Positions 42,001 through 48,000 of a stretch of 64,000 nt of DNA are shown one piece after another. Position 1 is the first letter of the stretch; each line of letters begins with the position of its first letter. Location: assembly GCA_046290465.1 (NCBI GenBank), contig JBKAGP010000001.1, positions 3,712,001 through 3,776,000 on the forward strand. Direction: 5' to 3'. This DNA comes from Planctomycetota bacterium. Lineage in GTDB: Bacteria > Planctomycetota > UBA1135 > UBA2386. Position numbers: made by a program.

Positions 42001-45000
42001 GACGAAGGTGACGCCGAGCAGCGTCAGCATCAGCCACAGCAGGCGGATCAGGAACCAGCGCCCCATCGCTTCTCAGGCCGACACGATCACCGACAGGATC
42101 GCCTTGCGCGTGTCGAGCCAGCACTGCCACGGGTCCGAGCCGCGCTCGTGCTCGAGCGTCAGGATCGGGATCTGCAGCGTGCGGCCGATCCACGAACCGA
42201 GCGAGCCCGGCGTCGGCGCGATCTTGTCCGACGGCTTGACCCGGTAGCCGGAGTGCTGCGAGAACAGTTCGGCGTGCTGGACCGCCGGCCCGTCGTAGTT
42301 GATGAAGTGGTCGTTGCGCCAGCTGTGCGCGACAATCACCAGGTGCGGACGTTCGGCGCGCACCAGGTCGTGCAGCGCGCGGGCCTCCGGCTGGTCGAGC
42401 GGCCGCTGGCCGTAGGCGCGACCGGGCAGGAAGTTGCTCGCCGGGTAGTTGCGGTTGAGGTCGATGCCCTGCGCGTTGCCGCGCGTGCCGTGCGCGGTGC
42501 CGTCCGGGTTGACGTCCTCGAGGATCGTCAGCGTCACTTGCTCGAGCGCGCCCGGGAACGCCGCGAACGCGCTCGGCAGCTCCGCGGTCGAGACCGAGCC
42601 TTCGCGTTCGTTGCCGTGGATGCCGCCGACCCAGATCACGCGGCGTGGGCCGTTGCCGATCCGACGGATGCGCAGCGGCCGGCCCTCGCGGCTCTGGCCG
42701 ATCGTCTGCCACGGCGACGGCTGCGCGATCGCGCGCGGCACCGAAGCGTCGGCGACATCGCGCGATGCCGACGAGTCCTGTGCCTTCCAGTCCGCGTTGC
42801 GCGGGTGGAACCCGACACAACCGGTCAACAACGCCGCCACGACGATCACCCACCGCATGGCTGCGAACGATAGCCGACTTCACTCGCGGAGCCATCCTGA
42901 CGATGAGGCAAGCAGCCAGGAACCTGCATGCCCGACCAAGCGACCATCCAGCGCATCGACGCCGCGATCTCGTTCGCCGGCCTGCTGATCCGCGTCGGCG
43001 CCTACGCCGTGGTCGGCGGCTTCGCCAGCCACTACGCGTGCGGCCAGGCGATCCTCACCGGCCTGTTCCTCGGCGACCTCGCCGCCAGCGTGCTCCGGGT
43101 GTTCGTGCAGCCGCGCGAGCACCTGGCGCAGTTCTTCGCCGAACTGCTGGTGCTGGCCGTGGTCTTCCTGTGGGCGCGCGGCGACCTGGTCTGGCCGGCC
43201 GACACGCCGACCCGGGCGATCATCGGGCTGGCCGCGTTCGGGGTTTTTGCCGGGCGCGCGGGAGGAACGACCCTGACCCGGTTCGGGCCGAGCGAAGACG
43301 GCTTCGCGTAGCGGGCGACCGCCGGTCGCGTGATCCCTGGGCCGCGGGGTTTTCGTTGGCCGTTCGGCGCCAGACGACGCCGGGTGCAGACCGGGCCCGA
43401 TCCGAGGGCCCGCATTCGCACCATGACCCAATCGCAGACCCCGCTTCCCCTCCTGCGCGACGCGAGCGGCGGCGCCCTGCCGACCACCAACGACGCGGTG
43501 ATGGTCGTCGGCACGCCGGGCAACTGGAGCTTCCCGGTCCGCGAGGGCGAGCCGATCGCGATCCCGCCGTCGGCCAACGGCACCTGGGTCGCCGGCAACG
43601 TCACCGGCACGACCAACGTCAACGCGAACGGCCAACTGCTGTTCAACCAGAGCGCCGACGACGGCACCGGCAGCACCAGCACCGGCGGCGCCTTCAGCGG
43701 CTCGGCCGGCAGCCCGATCTGGTTCGACCACGCGGGCGACTTCGTGTTCCGCCAGTCGATCGACAACAACGTCGAGGCCGCGATCGTCAAGGTGCAAGCG
43801 GCGTGCTGGCGGCGACGCCGAGCACCATCTCCGAGGCGAACGGAGGCACCCAGACGTTTGCGATCGACGCGGGCGCGGCGCACGCCGGAGACCTCTACGC
43901 CGTCATCGGCACGGCCAGCGGCACCACGCCCGGCACCGTCGTGCCGCTCGGCCCGCTGACGATCCCGCTCAACTTCGACGCCTACACCGACCTCACGGTC
44001 GCGCTGTTCAACACGTCGGTGTTCAGCAACACGCTGTCGGTGCTCGACGCCAACGGCCGCGCCACCGCGGCGCTCAACCTGCCGGCCGGCACGCTGCTCC
44101 ACCACGCGGTCGTCGGCCTCGACTTCACGCTGAGCGAGACGTTCGTCAGCGAACCGGCGACGGTCAATATCTTCTAGACCGGCGCCCCCCGGGTGGGATC
44201 GGGTCGGCTCGATCTGGCCGACTCGATCTGGCCGACTCGATCTGGGCGGGCGATCCGCCCGCCCCACCGCGCGGATACACCCTGGAAACAGCGTGCGCGC
44301 TAGCGTGCAGCGCACGATGCTGATCCAACGACCTCTCGTCGCGCTCGCATGTGGCGCGACCACGCTCTCTCTCGCGACCGCCCAGGGCGCGAACTTCGCC
44401 GCGCCGGTGATGATCCAGGCCGGCGACAAGGTCTGCGGCAAGGGCCGCATGTACCCGTCGCCAGCCGCCTACGACATCGACCGCGACGGCAAGCTCGACC
44501 TCGTCGTCGGCGACCTGCGCGGCCACCTGACCTACGCCCGCCAGACCGGCCCCGGCGCGTTCGCCGCCGAGCAGAAGCTCCAGGACGCCGCCGGCAAGGT
44601 GCTCGACTTCGGCAACTGGTGATGCATCGGCATGAGTCCACAGTTCGTGGACTTCAACGCCGACGGCCACGACGACATCGTCTGCGGCATCTTCGACGGT
44701 TCGCCACACGTCAGCTACTGGGACGCCGAAGCCGGCGGCTTCCTGCAACCGGTCGGCATCCTCGACAAGCAGGGCCAGCGCATCGTGCTGAACGCGTGGT
44801 GGAACTTCGACGCCAAGCAGTGGCAAGACACCGACCGCTGTGACCCGGAGGGCGGCGCGCCGGCCGAGGGCCACCTGACCTCGGCGATCGCGTTCGACTA
44901 CGACCGCGACGGCGACTGGGACCTGGTGCTCGGCGACCACAAGGGCGGCTACGTCTACTTGCGCCGCAACGAGGGCAGCAACGCGGCGCCGAAGTTCGCG

Positions 45001-48000
45001 ACCCGCAACGAGCTGGTGATGGCCGCCGGCAAGCCGATGCACGACCCCGGCACCGTCGCGACGATCCGCGCGGTCGACTGGAACGGCGACGGCAAGCTCG
45101 ACCTGATGGTGTCCGGCATGGGCGACCCCTACGGCGAAGGCACCGGCGGCGGCGTCGCGGTCTACCTCGACGAGAGCACCTCGGGCGACAAGAGCTTCGG
45201 CGCCGCGGTGACGCTGATCGAGCCGAGCCCGAAGGGCAGCGTCGGTGAGCCACGCCGGCCGGACGCCGGCCTGCACCCGGAGCCGGTCGACCTCGACGGC
45301 GACGGCGACCTCGACCTGATCGTCGGCGGCTACTCGATGTGGAAGCCGAACGCCCGCGAGCTGAGCGACGCCGAGAAGGCGCGCGCCGAGGAGCTGCAGC
45401 AGAAGCTGAGCGAACTGCGCGCCGAGAGCAGCAAGCTCTACGAGCAGGCGAGCAAGGCCAGGGAAGGCCTGACCGGCGAGGCGGCGCAGCAGGCGTTCGC
45501 GAAGGCCTACGAGCAGATCCGTCCGCAGATGGCCAAGGTGACCAGCCAACTGCAGCCGCTGCAGAAGGAGCTCGACAAGCTGCAGCCGCGGCCGCAGCGG
45601 GTGTCGTTCACGTGGTTCTACGAGAACCTGGCCAAGACCGGGACGCGGTAGTCGGCGGCCAGGTAGTCGGCGGCCCGGTAGTCGACCAGGTAGTCGACGA
45701 CCGGTAGCCGGACCGTCAGATCCCGTAGCGGCACGGGTCCTCGGGATCGATCACGAACGTCGCCATGCTCGTGATCCACGCCGAGCCGGTGATCTCCGGA
45801 ACGACCGCGTCGTGCTCGCCGACCCTGGTGGTCTCGAGCACGCGCGCCCGGAACCGGGTGCCGAGCACGCTGTCGCTGTCGAACCACTCGCCGACGCCGA
45901 GCTCGCCCTTGGCGTGCAGGACCGCGAGCTTGGCCGACGTGCCGGTGCCGCACGGCGAACGGTCGTAGGCGGTGCCCGGGCACAACGTCAGCGAGCGCGC
46001 GCCGGGACGTTCGCCGTCGAGCGGCACGAACAGCTTGATGTGGTCGACGATCTCCTCCTCGCCGACGTCCGGGTGCACGCCGCGGATGCCCTCGCGCACC
46101 ATCGATTCGCGGATCGCGGTCGCCGCCTGCATCAGCACCGGCAGGTGCGCCTTCTCGACCATCAGCCCGAGCTGGTCCGCCTCGACGAACGCAAACCAGT
46201 TGCCGCCGTAGGCGATGTCCGCCGCGATCTTACCGAAGCCGTGCACCGGCACGACGACGCGCTGGCGGTAGAGGAACGACGGCACGTTGGTGATCGTGAC
46301 GCTCCTGGGCCGGCCCGCCTCGACCTCGACCTTGCACTCGACCACGCCGACGGTCGTGTCGAGCCGGATCGTCGTGGTGGGCTCCACCGCCGGCACCATG
46401 CCCATCGCGACCGCCGTGGTCGCCAGGCCGATCGCGCCGTGGCCGCACATGCCGAGGTAGCCGGCATCGTTGACGAACACGACCCCGAGGTCGGCGTTGT
46501 CGCGCGTCGGCGGCAGCAGGTAGGCGACGATGATCGCGTCGTGGCCGCGCGGCTCGAGCACCAGCGCACGGCGCAGATGGTCGTGATCGCGCCGCAGCAC
46601 GTCGCGCTTCTCGGCCATCGTCCTGCCCGGGATCTGCGGCAGGCCGCCGGTTACGACGCGCGTCGGTTCGCCCGCAGTGTGCGAGTCGACCGCCTGGATC
46701 ATCTGCTCGAAGGACAGCATGCCAGGACGTTAGCATGGCCGACATGAAGAGAGCCCTGCTGTCCCTCTCCCCTCTGGTCGCCGGCGTCGCGATCGCCGCG
46801 TGGCCGGCGAGCGAATACGACTTCTGCCAGCTGCAGATCACCTACTGGGACCAGAAGCAGGGCATCGTGCGCGACCGCGGCTACCTCGCGGTCGACGAGG
46901 ACACCGGCCGCACCTACAAGACCGGCCCGTGGCTGTCGTGGTTCCAGAACGGCAAGAAGCTCAGCAGCGGCGACTACCGGAACAACCTGCGGCACGGCAC
47001 CTGGACGTTCTGGTTCCAGAGCGGCCAGAAGCGCTCGGAGATGGTGTTCGCCGACGGCCGGCCGACCGGCAAGAGCACCAGCTGGCACCCGAGCGGCCAG
47101 AAGTCCGAAGAGCGCATCTACGGCGAGACCGAGCTGCGCACCGTGCAGTGGCACGAGAACGGCCAGAAGTCGAACGAGGGCGTCATGAAGGGCCAGTTCG
47201 GCTCGGCCAGGATGCACGGCGTCTGGACCCGCTGGTACCCCAACGGCCAGAAGCGCAGCGAGGCGACCTACGACGACGGCAAGCTCGACGGCGTGCAGAC
47301 GTTCTGGGACGAGCAGGGCAACGTCACCAGCAAGACCACCTGGAAGAACGGCGAGCAGATCCAGTAGCGGTCCGCCCGCAGCGAGCGCCGGCTACTTCTT
47401 CTTCTGGTAGCTCGCCTTGAAGCTCAGGAACGGATCCATGTCGCCGAACGTGCTGTGCCCCTTGCAGCTCTTGGCGTGGCCGTTCTCGTCGACGTAGATC
47501 ACGTAGCGCTGCGTCGTCGGCATGCCCATCTGCACCCCGTCCATCGTGCTGATCAGCTTGCCGTCGTGCCACCGGCACTGCATCTCGCCGATCTGGCCCA
47601 TGTTGTCGACGAACACCGCGTGCATGCACTGGTCGTGCTCGTCCCAGCCCCACAGGGCATGCGACTCGTAGGCGTCCGACGAGCCGTCGGCGTGGCCGTC
47701 GGTGCGGCCGTGCATCGCCGTCCCGCCGAACACCATCTGCCACGAGTCGGTGCCGTGGATGCCGGTCGACGGCATGCCCGGCGCCATCATCATCTCGCCC
47801 TCGGTCGCGTAGGTGCCGGCCATGCGCGCGAGGCCCTTCATGCCGGCGCCCGGCTTGGCGCCCATCCACGGCGCCGTGCTCCAGTCGCCGTCGAAGCCGC
47901 CGCCGCCGCGCGCCATCGTGCAGTCGATGATCTTCATCGAGTCGCCCTCGGCCATCAGCAGGTCGATGCGCATTGTCATCTTGTCGCCGTCGATCTTGAC

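Follow-up and report, generated by a model that had tools for sequence, protein, structure and literature searches.

An in-frame TGA codon at positions 44620–44622 of the window, a 64,000-nucleotide stretch of a Planctomycetota genome, is very probably decoded as selenocysteine (Sec). The comparative evidence for this reading comprises the conservation of the TGA, a covarying SECIS hairpin, complete Sec machinery, and homologues with Cys-Cys at the same site. As the overall explanation of the locus, we lean toward an exported propeller selenoprotein with a Sec-Cys redox center that is fed by a DsbD-type relay.

Two open reading frames read as one FG-GAP gene

The first open reading frame (44293..44622, plus strand) closes in DFGNW-TGA, and the second (44632..45651, plus strand), which opens with MSPQFVD, is in frame with it. 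Reading through the TGA gives a single protein of 452 amino acids from GTG 44293, or 444 from ATG 44317, with the sequence FGNW-U-CIGMSPQFVD around the codon. The best stretch of the match to the Pfam domain FG-GAP_3 (E = 6.4e-23) is residues 61–130, spanning the TGA. The initial annotation proposed a single secreted FG-GAP gene with an in-frame TGA, and the common frame and the domain across the codon bear this out. FG-GAP/VCBS membership was assigned from PF13517 and PF01839 scores over the gathering score together with DxDxDGxxD Ca2+ loops; the window protein scores 81.6 bits for FG-GAP_3 (cut-off 26.9) and 49.5 for FG-GAP (cut-off 22.1), and the Asp positions of all five of its Ca2+-loop motifs are invariant in an alignment of 34 sequences. 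A hydrophobic N terminus was present in all 30 orthologues examined. From its sequence, the locus is best explained as one intact gene for an exported protein of ~420 residues after removal of the predicted signal peptide.

Coordinates of predicted features at the window locus
Feature	Position	Strand	Evidence
Whole gene, ATG to TAG, 444 codons, one in-frame TGA	44317..45651	+	Both halves in one frame, FG-GAP_3 across TGA; alternative start GTG 44293
Predicted signal peptide MLIQRPLVALACGATTLSLATA, cleavage after A-T-A	44317..44379	+	By eye from sequence; pLDDT <50 for residues 1–21
Ca2+-loop motif DIDRDGKLD, blade 1	44473..44499	+	Invariant D53, D57
TGA, probable selenocysteine, U102 (ATG numbering) / U110 (GTG numbering)	44620..44622	+	Conserved at site among homologues
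TGC, adjacent cysteine C103	44623..44625	+	Alignment of 50 sequences
Candidate SECIS hairpin, 8-bp stem GAGUCCAC/GUGGACUU, loop AGUUC	44634..44654	+	5-nt loop, G at loop position 2 then U, 19 nt UGA to loop, -11.4 kcal/mol
Ca2+-loop motif DFNADGHDD, blade 2	44650..44676	+	Directly after Sec-Cys loop and strand QFV
Ca2+-loop motif DYDRDGDWD, blade 3	44896..44922	+	Sequence and alignment
Ca2+-loop motif DWNGDGKLD, blade 4	45076..45102	+	Sequence and alignment
Ca2+-loop motif DLDGDGDLD, blade 5	45289..45315	+	Sequence and alignment
Long alpha-helical hairpin, residues 351–422	45367..45582	+	AlphaFold model: H351–382, H387–422
Conserved C-terminal strand SFTWFYENL (consensus FVWLYER), returns to propeller	45595..45621	+	Model E427–435

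The codon after the TGA is also conserved: its first two positions (columns 10–11, TG) are invariant in 50 sequences, and at the third (column 12) at least 90% of them have C, the rest giving TGT, also Cys. The long alpha-helical hairpin is variable and is missing in some subfamilies (L036 and L038–L041), and W433 of the C-terminal strand is kept in 25 of 25 Sec forms. A second copy in the genome (G000:C1:5535454-5536632, minus strand) encodes 392 amino acids with the motif PGVW-U-CTSSTPQFVD.

Conservation of the TGA and the Sec machinery

A search of 401 genomes of the phylum gave 75 matches that span the site, and 74 of them have the TGA, down to ~30% identity; when the Cys-Cys protein P0154 is used as the query, it is found in 72 of 74 site-spanning places. 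Its presence at the homologous codon was verified in 55 distinct sequences, and both paralogues share it, which confirms and extends the nine of nine loci reported earlier. Contigs from four further public runs, from four studies, have no change at the TGA or the hairpin over positions 44608–44658. Chance or assembly error is excluded. The family is present in about one-sixth of the sampled genomes of the phylum, often in two copies.

SelA, the SelB wing, and SelD are all encoded in the genome, SelD itself with an in-frame TGA (SSAG-U-AAK), as is a tRNA-Sec (72.8 bits) called as SeC(tca) by ARAGORN. A SelA match was found in 61 of the 62 genomes having the TGA form, versus 304 of 401 overall; the TGA-form genome with no SelA match (G063) is 90% complete and in about 410 contigs. 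SelB and tRNA-Sec would decode the UGA as selenocysteine, directed by the hairpin 11 nt 3′ of it.

A covarying hairpin follows the TGA

The hairpin GAGTCCAC-AGTTC-GTGGACTT begins 11 nt 3′ of the TGA. The bSECIS consensus is a 3–9 nt loop with G in its first two positions, a stem of 4–16 bp, a distance of 16–37 nt from the UGA, and an MFE of ≤ -7.5, and the window hairpin lies within all four constraints (PMC13188914, Fig. 2 legend). When a 26-nt stretch was folded for each of 50 family sequences, 38 hairpins reached -7.5 kcal/mol and 12 were weaker. In 50 distinct sequences, 88.8% of cells in the helix are paired, versus 25–46% with one side slid, and the covariation score is 0.249 versus 0.181 for shuffles, a value reached by none of 500 shuffles. 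The number of pairs with a change on both sides was four, which was reached by 107 of 500 shuffles. Pair 27–35 is AU in 37 sequences, GC in 10, and GU in two, and pair 26–36 is CG in 45, UA in four, and UG in one; a synonymous change of CCA to CCG is accompanied by GUG to GCG in the hairpin. In seven window genes with a GC3 of about 0.95, the only AGT among 114 Ser codons sits in the stem. The earlier report of a kept hairpin downstream of the TGA stands, at a spacing of 11 nt. The hairpin overlaps the conserved peptide SPQFVD, and part of its conservation is due to that of the peptide. Cys-form DNAs were available for two relatives, L057 and L180; a stable hairpin is missing in both (-1.7 and -3.1 kcal/mol, where the 50 Sec forms average -9.3).

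It is highly improbable that the TGA is not Sec but a real stop, whether between two genes or within a pseudogene, or that some other residue is inserted there. Such readings would fit the two open reading frames annotated by gene callers, the 120 best database matches, which all cover only 73–75% of the query from Met114 (GTG numbering) just after the TGA, and the weak folding score of the window sequence alone (z = -1.44; 17 of 200 shuffles fold equally well or better). A decaying pseudogene, however, would not retain a single TGA at the same codon across 55 distinct sequences and both paralogues, and the repeat domain spans the codon, with the signal peptide only in the N-terminal part. TGA also terminates nine of 30 family genes and is therefore a true stop in these organisms as well; this, the covariation of the hairpin and its loss in Cys forms, and the presence of the Sec machinery all argue for selenocysteine.

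Cys-Cys and pair-less relatives

As a correction to the initial annotation, Cys-Cys was found at the Sec site in P0138, P0154, P0236, P0239, P0211, L057, and L180. P0154 is an "FG-GAP repeat protein" of Novipirellula aureliae (WP_146601146.1) with the site motif NW-C-C-VGASSQLVD, and it grouped with the Sec form L069 in 200 of 200 neighbor-joining bootstraps. The Cys-Cys homologues nest inside Sec clades, and Sec forms are far more numerous. In three full-length relatives neither residue remains (W-S, R-S, and P-G stand in their place), which indicates that the scaffold can exist without the pair.

Predicted fold and position of the Sec-Cys pair

The AlphaFold model of the window protein (pLDDT 91.6, pTM 0.88) predicts a Ca2+-stabilized five-bladed propeller of FG-GAP repeats. 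The protein has five Ca2+-loop repeats, and the best 50 VIA matches to the model (Z 18.2–13.6) are almost all GH62, GH43, GH32, GH68, and GH130 enzymes. These families are five-bladed propellers, and enzymes with this fold have their active site in the central depression. Integrin chains gave a TM score of only 0.29–0.33, so for this predicted model an integrin-type, seven-bladed propeller was rejected, and with it the integrin-like fold suggested at first. Sec102 and Cys103 are predicted to lie in the loop entering the innermost strand of blade 2. From propeller topology, we infer that this loop lies where the central channel opens, on the side of the propeller facing away from the Ca2+ loops.

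Most FG-GAP/VCBS propellers serve as binding modules, and the Foldseek neighbors of the model (CRTAC1, integrin alpha, UmbA4, and ITFG2) agree with a binding or adhesion module in which the Sec-Cys bridge of a genuine selenoprotein is structural or regulatory and DsbD_N only keeps the propeller folded or reduced. The complete absence of the pair from some relatives is also consistent with such a role, but we consider it quite unlikely, given that Sec is costly and almost always catalytic, that the TGA persists to ~30% identity, and that, Ca2+ positions aside, no part of the Sec forms is more conserved than the pair and its surrounding loops (R-x-YPSP, NW-U-C-IG, FDGSP, and RPDxGLY).

DsbD_N fusions point to a likely redox function

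Of 14 members tested that were longer or full-length, seven scored over the cut-off for DsbD_N (PF11412), as did L069, a Sec form verified at the DNA level. The fused domains occur in both Sec and Cys forms and are confined to one subfamily; all 11 domains aligned keep both Cys (motif C-x4-C-x-P). The window protein has no DsbD_N domain, and its genome encodes one protein with two DsbD_N domains and DsbD_TM and two stand-alone DsbD_N proteins. A fused DsbD_N with an invariant Cys pair favors a redox-active Sec-Cys center recycled by a DsbD-type relay. The pair would be the catalytic center of an envelope reductase, cycling between selenenylsulfide and selenol/thiol, with electrons supplied by a DsbD/ScsB-type relay via an nDsbD-like domain that is tethered to the propeller in some lineages and would act in trans in the window genome. 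Candidate substrates would be a peroxide, an oxidized thiol or sulfoxide, or a metal or metalloid. If the residue is Sec, the domain fusions make this redox-relay step reasonably likely. Selenenylsulfide chemistry and any metal binding are putative properties of the pair.

The pair of a genuine selenoprotein could instead bind a soft metal or metalloid (Hg, Cu(I), Cd, or As) for sensing, sequestration, or transfer rather than catalytic redox. MerA binds Hg through a vicinal Cys-Cys, and copper stress is associated with the DsbD_N relay of ScsB/ScsC. Adjacent-pair motifs also occur in metal-handling selenoproteins: CU in the MerB-like SaoL, HgcA, and MbdU and GxUC in a CopZ-family protein (PMC13188914, Table 1). 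However, a fused thiol-disulfide electron donor fits turnover of an oxidized pair better than static binding. No recurrent neighbor was found beside the family gene, metal-resistance genes included, and no further conserved Cys or His cluster was seen around the site except for a His or Trp after FDGSP. Metal binding in place of redox catalysis is unlikely.

Discussion

Our data support a widespread planctomycete selenoprotein family that is absent from the catalogs checked. No FG-GAP entry is present in a 2026 review table of 119 families (PMC13188914, Table 1) or in NCBIfam, where all 10 matches at E ≤ 1 are weak, fall below the cut-offs, and involve no selenoprotein model; nor does one appear in the main text of the BSepDB or deep-Sep papers. 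The original claim that no FG-GAP/VCBS selenoprotein is listed holds for that table and for NCBIfam but not for a 2016 supplementary table, which gives a different FG-GAP/ASPIC family as selenoprotein candidates (PMC4807772, Table S9). Also listed there is one further candidate, unnamed and labeled "hypothetical", with Cys in Rhodopirellula sallentina.

Genome annotation misses selenoproteins systematically, and every database record examined for this family shows it as two "genes"; a family model would mend thousands of split genes. If the interpretation is correct, it places selenocysteine on a beta-propeller with a U-C motif, linked to the envelope DsbD reductive pathway, and opens the question of what a selenium-dependent reductase of marine planctomycetes does beyond the cytoplasm. 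With its Cys-Cys form, the cultured N. aureliae offers an experimental entry point. Tentatively, the window protein may be the founder of a class of selenoenzymes that work outside the cytoplasm. In this scheme, a Ca2+-dependent FG-GAP propeller with five blades and a vicinal Sec-Cys reductase center at its central pocket would receive electrons from cytoplasmic thioredoxin, passed on by a membrane relay of the DsbD/ScsB type and an nDsbD-like domain, either tethered or free. It would act on an envelope or extracellular substrate, with Sec ancestral and dominant. We regard so complete a scheme as possible rather than probable.

Cys-Cys members of the family, such as P0154, have the propeller and site motif in common with the window protein but carry Cys in place of Sec, and P0154, unlike the window protein, has DsbD_N at its N terminus. 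The likeness to the GH62, GH43, GH32, GH68, and GH130 enzymes, its best structural neighbors with about 250–280 residues aligned, is one of fold only: identity is 4–14%, the catalytic acids are not common to the window protein, and its blades, unlike theirs, consist of FG-GAP repeats bearing Ca2+ loops. Clients of the reductive DsbD/ScsB pathway in the cell envelope include DsbC, DsbG, CcmG, ScsC, and envelope peroxiredoxin. Like them, the window protein is predicted to be exported and has a putative redox-active chalcogen pair, and some relatives have a tethered nDsbD-like domain; the known clients, however, are thioredoxin folds with CxxC, whereas no thioredoxin fold is present in the window gene, which encodes a propeller with a vicinal U-C.

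Vicinal chalcogen pairs are found in the GCUG of thioredoxin reductase and the C-terminal CC of MerA. As in these and in the CU and GxUC selenoproteins (PMC13188914, Table 1), the adjacent Sec and Cys could close an eight-membered selenenylsulfide ring or hold a soft metal by chelation; the window pair differs in that its order is U-C and it is internal, follows an invariant or near-invariant Trp, and sits on an unrelated fold. The candidates in Table S9 of PMC4807772 are, like the window protein, planctomycete FG-GAP proteins whose in-frame UGA has led to annotation as two separate genes. Those CRTAC1-like proteins contain an ASPIC/UnbV domain, and Gly stands opposite their Sec in the closest match; the window protein (P0001) has no UnbV_ASPIC match (PF07593) at E ≤ 0.01 and its Sec aligns to Cys, so its assignment to that group was rejected. 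The gene follows the E. coli fdhF paradigm and the bSECIS model (PMC13188914), with an in-frame UGA and then a stem-loop, 19 nt to the loop, selA, selB, selC, and selD in the genome, and Cys homologues that align to the Sec, in a family and fold outside the 119 families of known bacterial selenoprotein genes in Table 1 of that review.

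The propeller gene is interrupted by one in-frame TGA codon

The gene was found as two open reading frames in the same frame, split by a single TGA. The upstream frame ends in ...VLDFGNW, and past the TGA the codons TGC ATC GGC are followed by an ATG, which is the start chosen by gene callers and gives a 339-aa protein (MSPQFVD...). Read-through gives a product of 452 residues from a GTG at 44293 or 444 residues from an ATG at 44317; the putative selenocysteine (Sec) is U102 in the ATG numbering and adjoins Cys103. The read-through product matches Pfam FG-GAP_3 (E = 6.4e-23), with the best stretch (residues 61–130) spanning the TGA, and its N terminus is a hydrophobic signal-like peptide present only in the part upstream of the TGA. 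A paralogue elsewhere in the genome has a TGA at the equivalent place (PGVW-U-CTSSTPQFVD) and is 37% identical to the window protein over the aligned N-terminal stretch. The coordinates and values given in the initial annotation were reproduced.

Features of the window, the genome and the window protein. G000:C1 is the contig of this genome; L147 is a locus read as DNA.
Feature	Location	Strand	Remarks
Two in-frame ORFs of the propeller gene	window 44293-45651	+	split by one TGA at 44620-44622
Candidate SECIS hairpin, GAGUCCAC-AGUUC-GUGGACUU	window 44634-44654	+	11 nt 3' of the TGA
Predicted 6-bp hairpin enclosing the UGA	window 44616-44630		alignment columns 3-8 with 12-17
Tandem repeat, 15-nt unit GGCCGACTCGATCTG	window 44199-44245		immediately upstream of the propeller gene
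Stretch encoding DLDGDGDLDL	window 45271-45321		raised contig depth
Short direct repeats (GGTAGTCGGCGGCC..., GGTAGTCGAC...)	window 45650-45715		seen by eye; in the gap between the propeller gene and the convergent proline racemase gene
Two UnbV_ASPIC matches	window about 3220-5154	-	CRTAC1-like 1286-aa open frame without a stop
Neighbouring genes	window		M14 peptidase, ABC permeases, proline racemase, MORN, DUF1579; look unrelated
selD and selA, adjoining	G000:C1:1309619-1311717	-	selD in-frame TGA in SSAG-U-AAK
ScsB/DsbD-like protein	G000:C1:4518361 onward (L147:1399-3336)		two DsbD_N-like domains, then DsbD transmembrane domain
Paralogue of the propeller gene	G000:C1:5535454-5536632	-	392 aa
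Long helical hairpin	residues 351-422		inserted ahead of the conserved last strand; missing in one subfamily

Contigs of four further public runs, from four studies, cover 44608-44658 with the TGA and the hairpin unchanged. In two of the four runs an extra repeat unit lies behind 44229; the copy number of the 15-nt repeat therefore differs between strains. All four runs show a 20- to 40-fold rise in contig depth over the DLDGDGDLDL stretch, which reflects cross-mapping rather than copy number because this stretch is common to many other FG-GAP genes.

The TGA is very probably a conserved selenocysteine codon

We have little doubt that the TGA is a real and conserved selenocysteine codon. The genome, a single contig of 6.59 Mb, has complete Sec machinery, with a tRNA-Sec (72.8 bits; called by ARAGORN as SeC, anticodon tca), a SelB-type wing domain within a 679-aa frame, and a SelA match of 367.9 bits. 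The selD gene also carries an in-frame TGA, which makes SelD a selenoprotein in this genome and an internal positive control.

Among 401 sampled genomes of the phylum, 66 had a match at E <= 1e-20. Eighty places were listed, of which 75 cross the site, and 74 of these have a TGA, down to approximately 30% identity. The search was repeated with P0154, a protein of Novipirellula aureliae, as the query; this is a Cys-Cys protein and so introduces no bias toward TGA, and a TGA was found in 72 of 74 places. The site was read in 55 distinct sequences, always with the TGA within (W/G/S)-U-C-x5-Q-x-x-(D/E), which extends the conservation initially noted for nine of nine loci. Of the 62 genomes that carry the TGA form, 61 gave a SelA match, the exception (G063) being an assembly of ~410 contigs that is ~90% complete; this co-occurrence is consistent with Sec decoding yet non-discriminating, because SelA is common across the sample (304/401 genomes). 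TGA also terminates 9 of 30 family genes and is therefore an ordinary stop codon elsewhere in these organisms.

A candidate SECIS hairpin follows the TGA

The consensus bacterial SECIS has a loop of 3–9 nt, a stem of 4–16 bp, an MFE at or below -7.5, a G at loop position 1 or 2 with G or U directly after it, and a UGA-to-loop distance of 16–37 nt (PMC13188914, Fig. 2 legend). The window hairpin agrees with this model, with a 5-nt loop that starts A-G-U, an 8-bp stem and a spacing of 19 nt, and its MFE is -11.4 kcal/mol. In a gap-free alignment of 50 distinct sequences, standard pairs occupy 88.8% of the helix cells, compared with 25–46% when one side is slid by 1–3 columns, and the four apical pairs are intact in 199 of 200 cells. 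The covariation score was 0.249 against 0.181 +/- 0.013 in shuffled alignments, none of which (0/500) reached the observed value. Pair 27-35 is A-U in 37 sequences, G-C in 10 and G-U in 2, and pair 26-36 is C-G in 45, U-A in 4 and U-G in 1. Changes in the stem are coupled, a synonymous Pro change (CCA to CCG) on one side accompanying Val GUG to Ala GCG on the other, which is not predicted by selection at the protein level alone. The gene has a GC3 of 0.95, and its stem contains AGT and CCA; across seven genes of the window, with 114 Ser codons in all, this is the sole AGT. In the two Cys-form genes read as DNA, L057 (genome G375) and L180 (G344), the peptide motif is retained but the family helix is not formed; they fold at -1.7 and -3.1 kcal/mol, respectively, against a mean of -9.3 (-5.3 to -14.4) for the 50 Sec forms.

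Five observations count against the element: the window sequence folded alone gives z = -1.44, 107 of 500 shuffles reached the measure that scores pairs changed on both sides, 12 of the 50 hairpins are weaker than -7.5 when the short stretch is folded, the hairpin overlaps a conserved peptide, and there is no matching Rfam family. A search of Rfam with 44560-44720 (E-value threshold 10) returned four chance-level matches and no SECIS family. RNAalifold also predicted the small hairpin that encloses the UGA; it is conserved, with no change on both sides among the 50 sequences.

Cysteine forms lie among selenocysteine forms

Family proteins are shortened by gene callers. The best 120 matches of a word-indexed search each cover 73–75% of the query, and 119 have lengths of 328–354 aa; an exhaustive search listed 150 best cluster representatives, 69 of which start at query residues 111–120. 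Nine representatives cross the site without a stop: five are Cys-Cys (P0138, P0154, P0236, P0239 and P0211), one is His-Cys, and the other three lack both residues. Cys-form homologs, which the initial annotation had not sought outside the order, do exist, for example P0154 (WP_146601146.1, annotated "FG-GAP repeat protein [Novipirellula aureliae]"). The Cys-Cys form in G344 reads IY-CC-VGAQPRFVD, and the SelA-like match in that genome is weak (E = 3.3e-10). When genome contigs were searched with generic FG-GAP patterns, the family members among the matches listed were the first eight loci and locus L074.

The forms were compared in a rough, unrooted neighbor-joining (NJ) tree (Kimura distances, 200 bootstraps), for which the distance formula overflowed for some very distant pairs. 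The non-Sec forms were monophyletic in 0 of 200 bootstraps and were placed inside Sec clades: L057 grouped with three Sec forms (194/200), P0154 with the Sec form L069 (200/200), and P0138 lay inside six Sec forms (193/200). Sec is the dominant state of the family and, because non-Sec forms nest in Sec clades and are never monophyletic, is probably the older one in this unrooted NJ tree, with several switches to Cys.

The predicted fold suggests a Sec-Cys pair at a channel mouth

An AlphaFold2 model was made from a 34-sequence alignment, leaving out five loci with long N-terminal extensions (pLDDT 91.6, pTM 0.88). The initial annotation had described an integrin-like propeller. The protein has five DxDxDGxxD repeats, and an alignment-independent structure search returned 50 entries (Z 18.2–13.6), nearly all of them GH62, GH43, GH32, GH68 and GH130 enzymes, which are families of five-bladed propellers. 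The Foldseek matches to CRTAC1, integrin alpha V, UmbA4, ITFG2 and TcB did not exceed TM 0.3–0.4. Given these results, the protein is an FG-GAP propeller, and most likely a five-bladed rather than an integrin-like one. The conserved last strand (FVWLYER), which follows the long helical hairpin, goes back to the propeller.

The loop that holds Sec102-Cys103 comes immediately before strand QFV, the first and innermost of blade 2; this strand runs into the blade 2 Ca2+ loop. In integrin structures, the FG-GAP Ca2+ hairpins lie on one face of the propeller and the 4-1 loops lie on the opposite face, near the axis; by analogy with this topology, the Sec-Cys pair should be where the central channel opens. 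Outside the Ca2+ loops, the most conserved positions of the Sec forms are R-x-YPSP, NW-U-C-IGM, FDGSP and RPDxGLY, in the equivalent loops that lead into other blades, which is the pattern of an active site. We also considered a possible PQQ-dehydrogenase-like role for the window protein, in which a vicinal disulfide would lie next to a propeller cofactor.

DsbD_N fusions in relatives suggest a redox role

In the thiol-disulfide relay of DsbD, the periplasmic donor domain is DsbD_N. Of 14 longer or full-length family members scanned, 7 carry this domain (PF11412) with a score over its cut-off; it is N-terminal in the Cys-Cys form P0154 and C-terminal, after a linker, in P0189, P0198, P0203, P0237, P0145 and P0197. 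L069, a DNA-verified Sec form whose 571-aa ORF is complete and lies on a MAG contig labeled Pirellulaceae, has an N-terminal DsbD_N (34.7 bits). All 11 aligned domains keep both cysteines of the motif C-x4-C-x-P. The window protein is without DsbD_N; elsewhere, the genome encodes an ScsB/DsbD-like protein and, as stand-alone DsbD_N proteins, one of 237 aa and one of 388 aa. Because the domain is fused to family members and also occurs as free proteins in the genome, the Sec-Cys pair is probably a redox centre, and overall the balance tips slightly toward a DsbD-linked redox role. A substrate would oxidize the pair to a selenenylsulfide, an nDsbD-type domain would re-reduce it, and the propeller would thereby act as an envelope reductase. 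The main rival is that the pair binds metal instead, because the adjacent CU and UC motifs in Table 1 of a 2026 selenoprotein review belong largely to metal-handling proteins (PMC13188914).

Gene context is uninformative on function because, among 112 flanking ORFs from 29 loci (1.5-kb flanks, two longest frames per flank), no neighbor family recurred except between close relatives, where L039 and L041 share FlgM and YchF. In one locus, L015 (G011:C38), a stretch ~250 nt upstream of the propeller gene and in the same frame resembles, by eye, the C terminus of a TlpA/redoxin-type protein (...GYPSAWLIDRDGVIR...); this pattern did not recur in other loci. P0108 (719 aa, NCBI) extends into a C-terminal alpha-alpha toroid region that matches SQHop_cyclase_C and the A-macroglobulin TED domain, which may reflect either a genuine fusion or the joining of two genes.

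Comparison with known selenoprotein families

Table 1 of PMC13188914 has 119 families with no FG-GAP, VCBS or propeller entry, as initially noted, and a term search of its text found no mention of them. The same terms were absent from the main texts of BSepDB (PMC13326102) and deep-Sep (PMC12013277). Full-text literature searches gave no relevant paper pairing selenoprotein or selenocysteine with FG-GAP or VCBS and nothing on selenoprotein, beta-propeller and Planctomycetota together. The family is therefore new with respect to that table and to the main texts of BSepDB and deep-Sep.

Table S9 of Kim et al. (2016) includes one "hypothetical" candidate with Cys, from Rhodopirellula sallentina (PMC4807772). 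The UnbV_ASPIC matches in the window lie in an uninterrupted frame. At two further UnbV_ASPIC loci in this genome the open frames are shorter, at 628 and 681 aa, so that these genes might represent Sec forms of the family in Table S9. The FG-GAP/ASPIC candidates of that table form a CRTAC1-like family that differs from that of the window protein.
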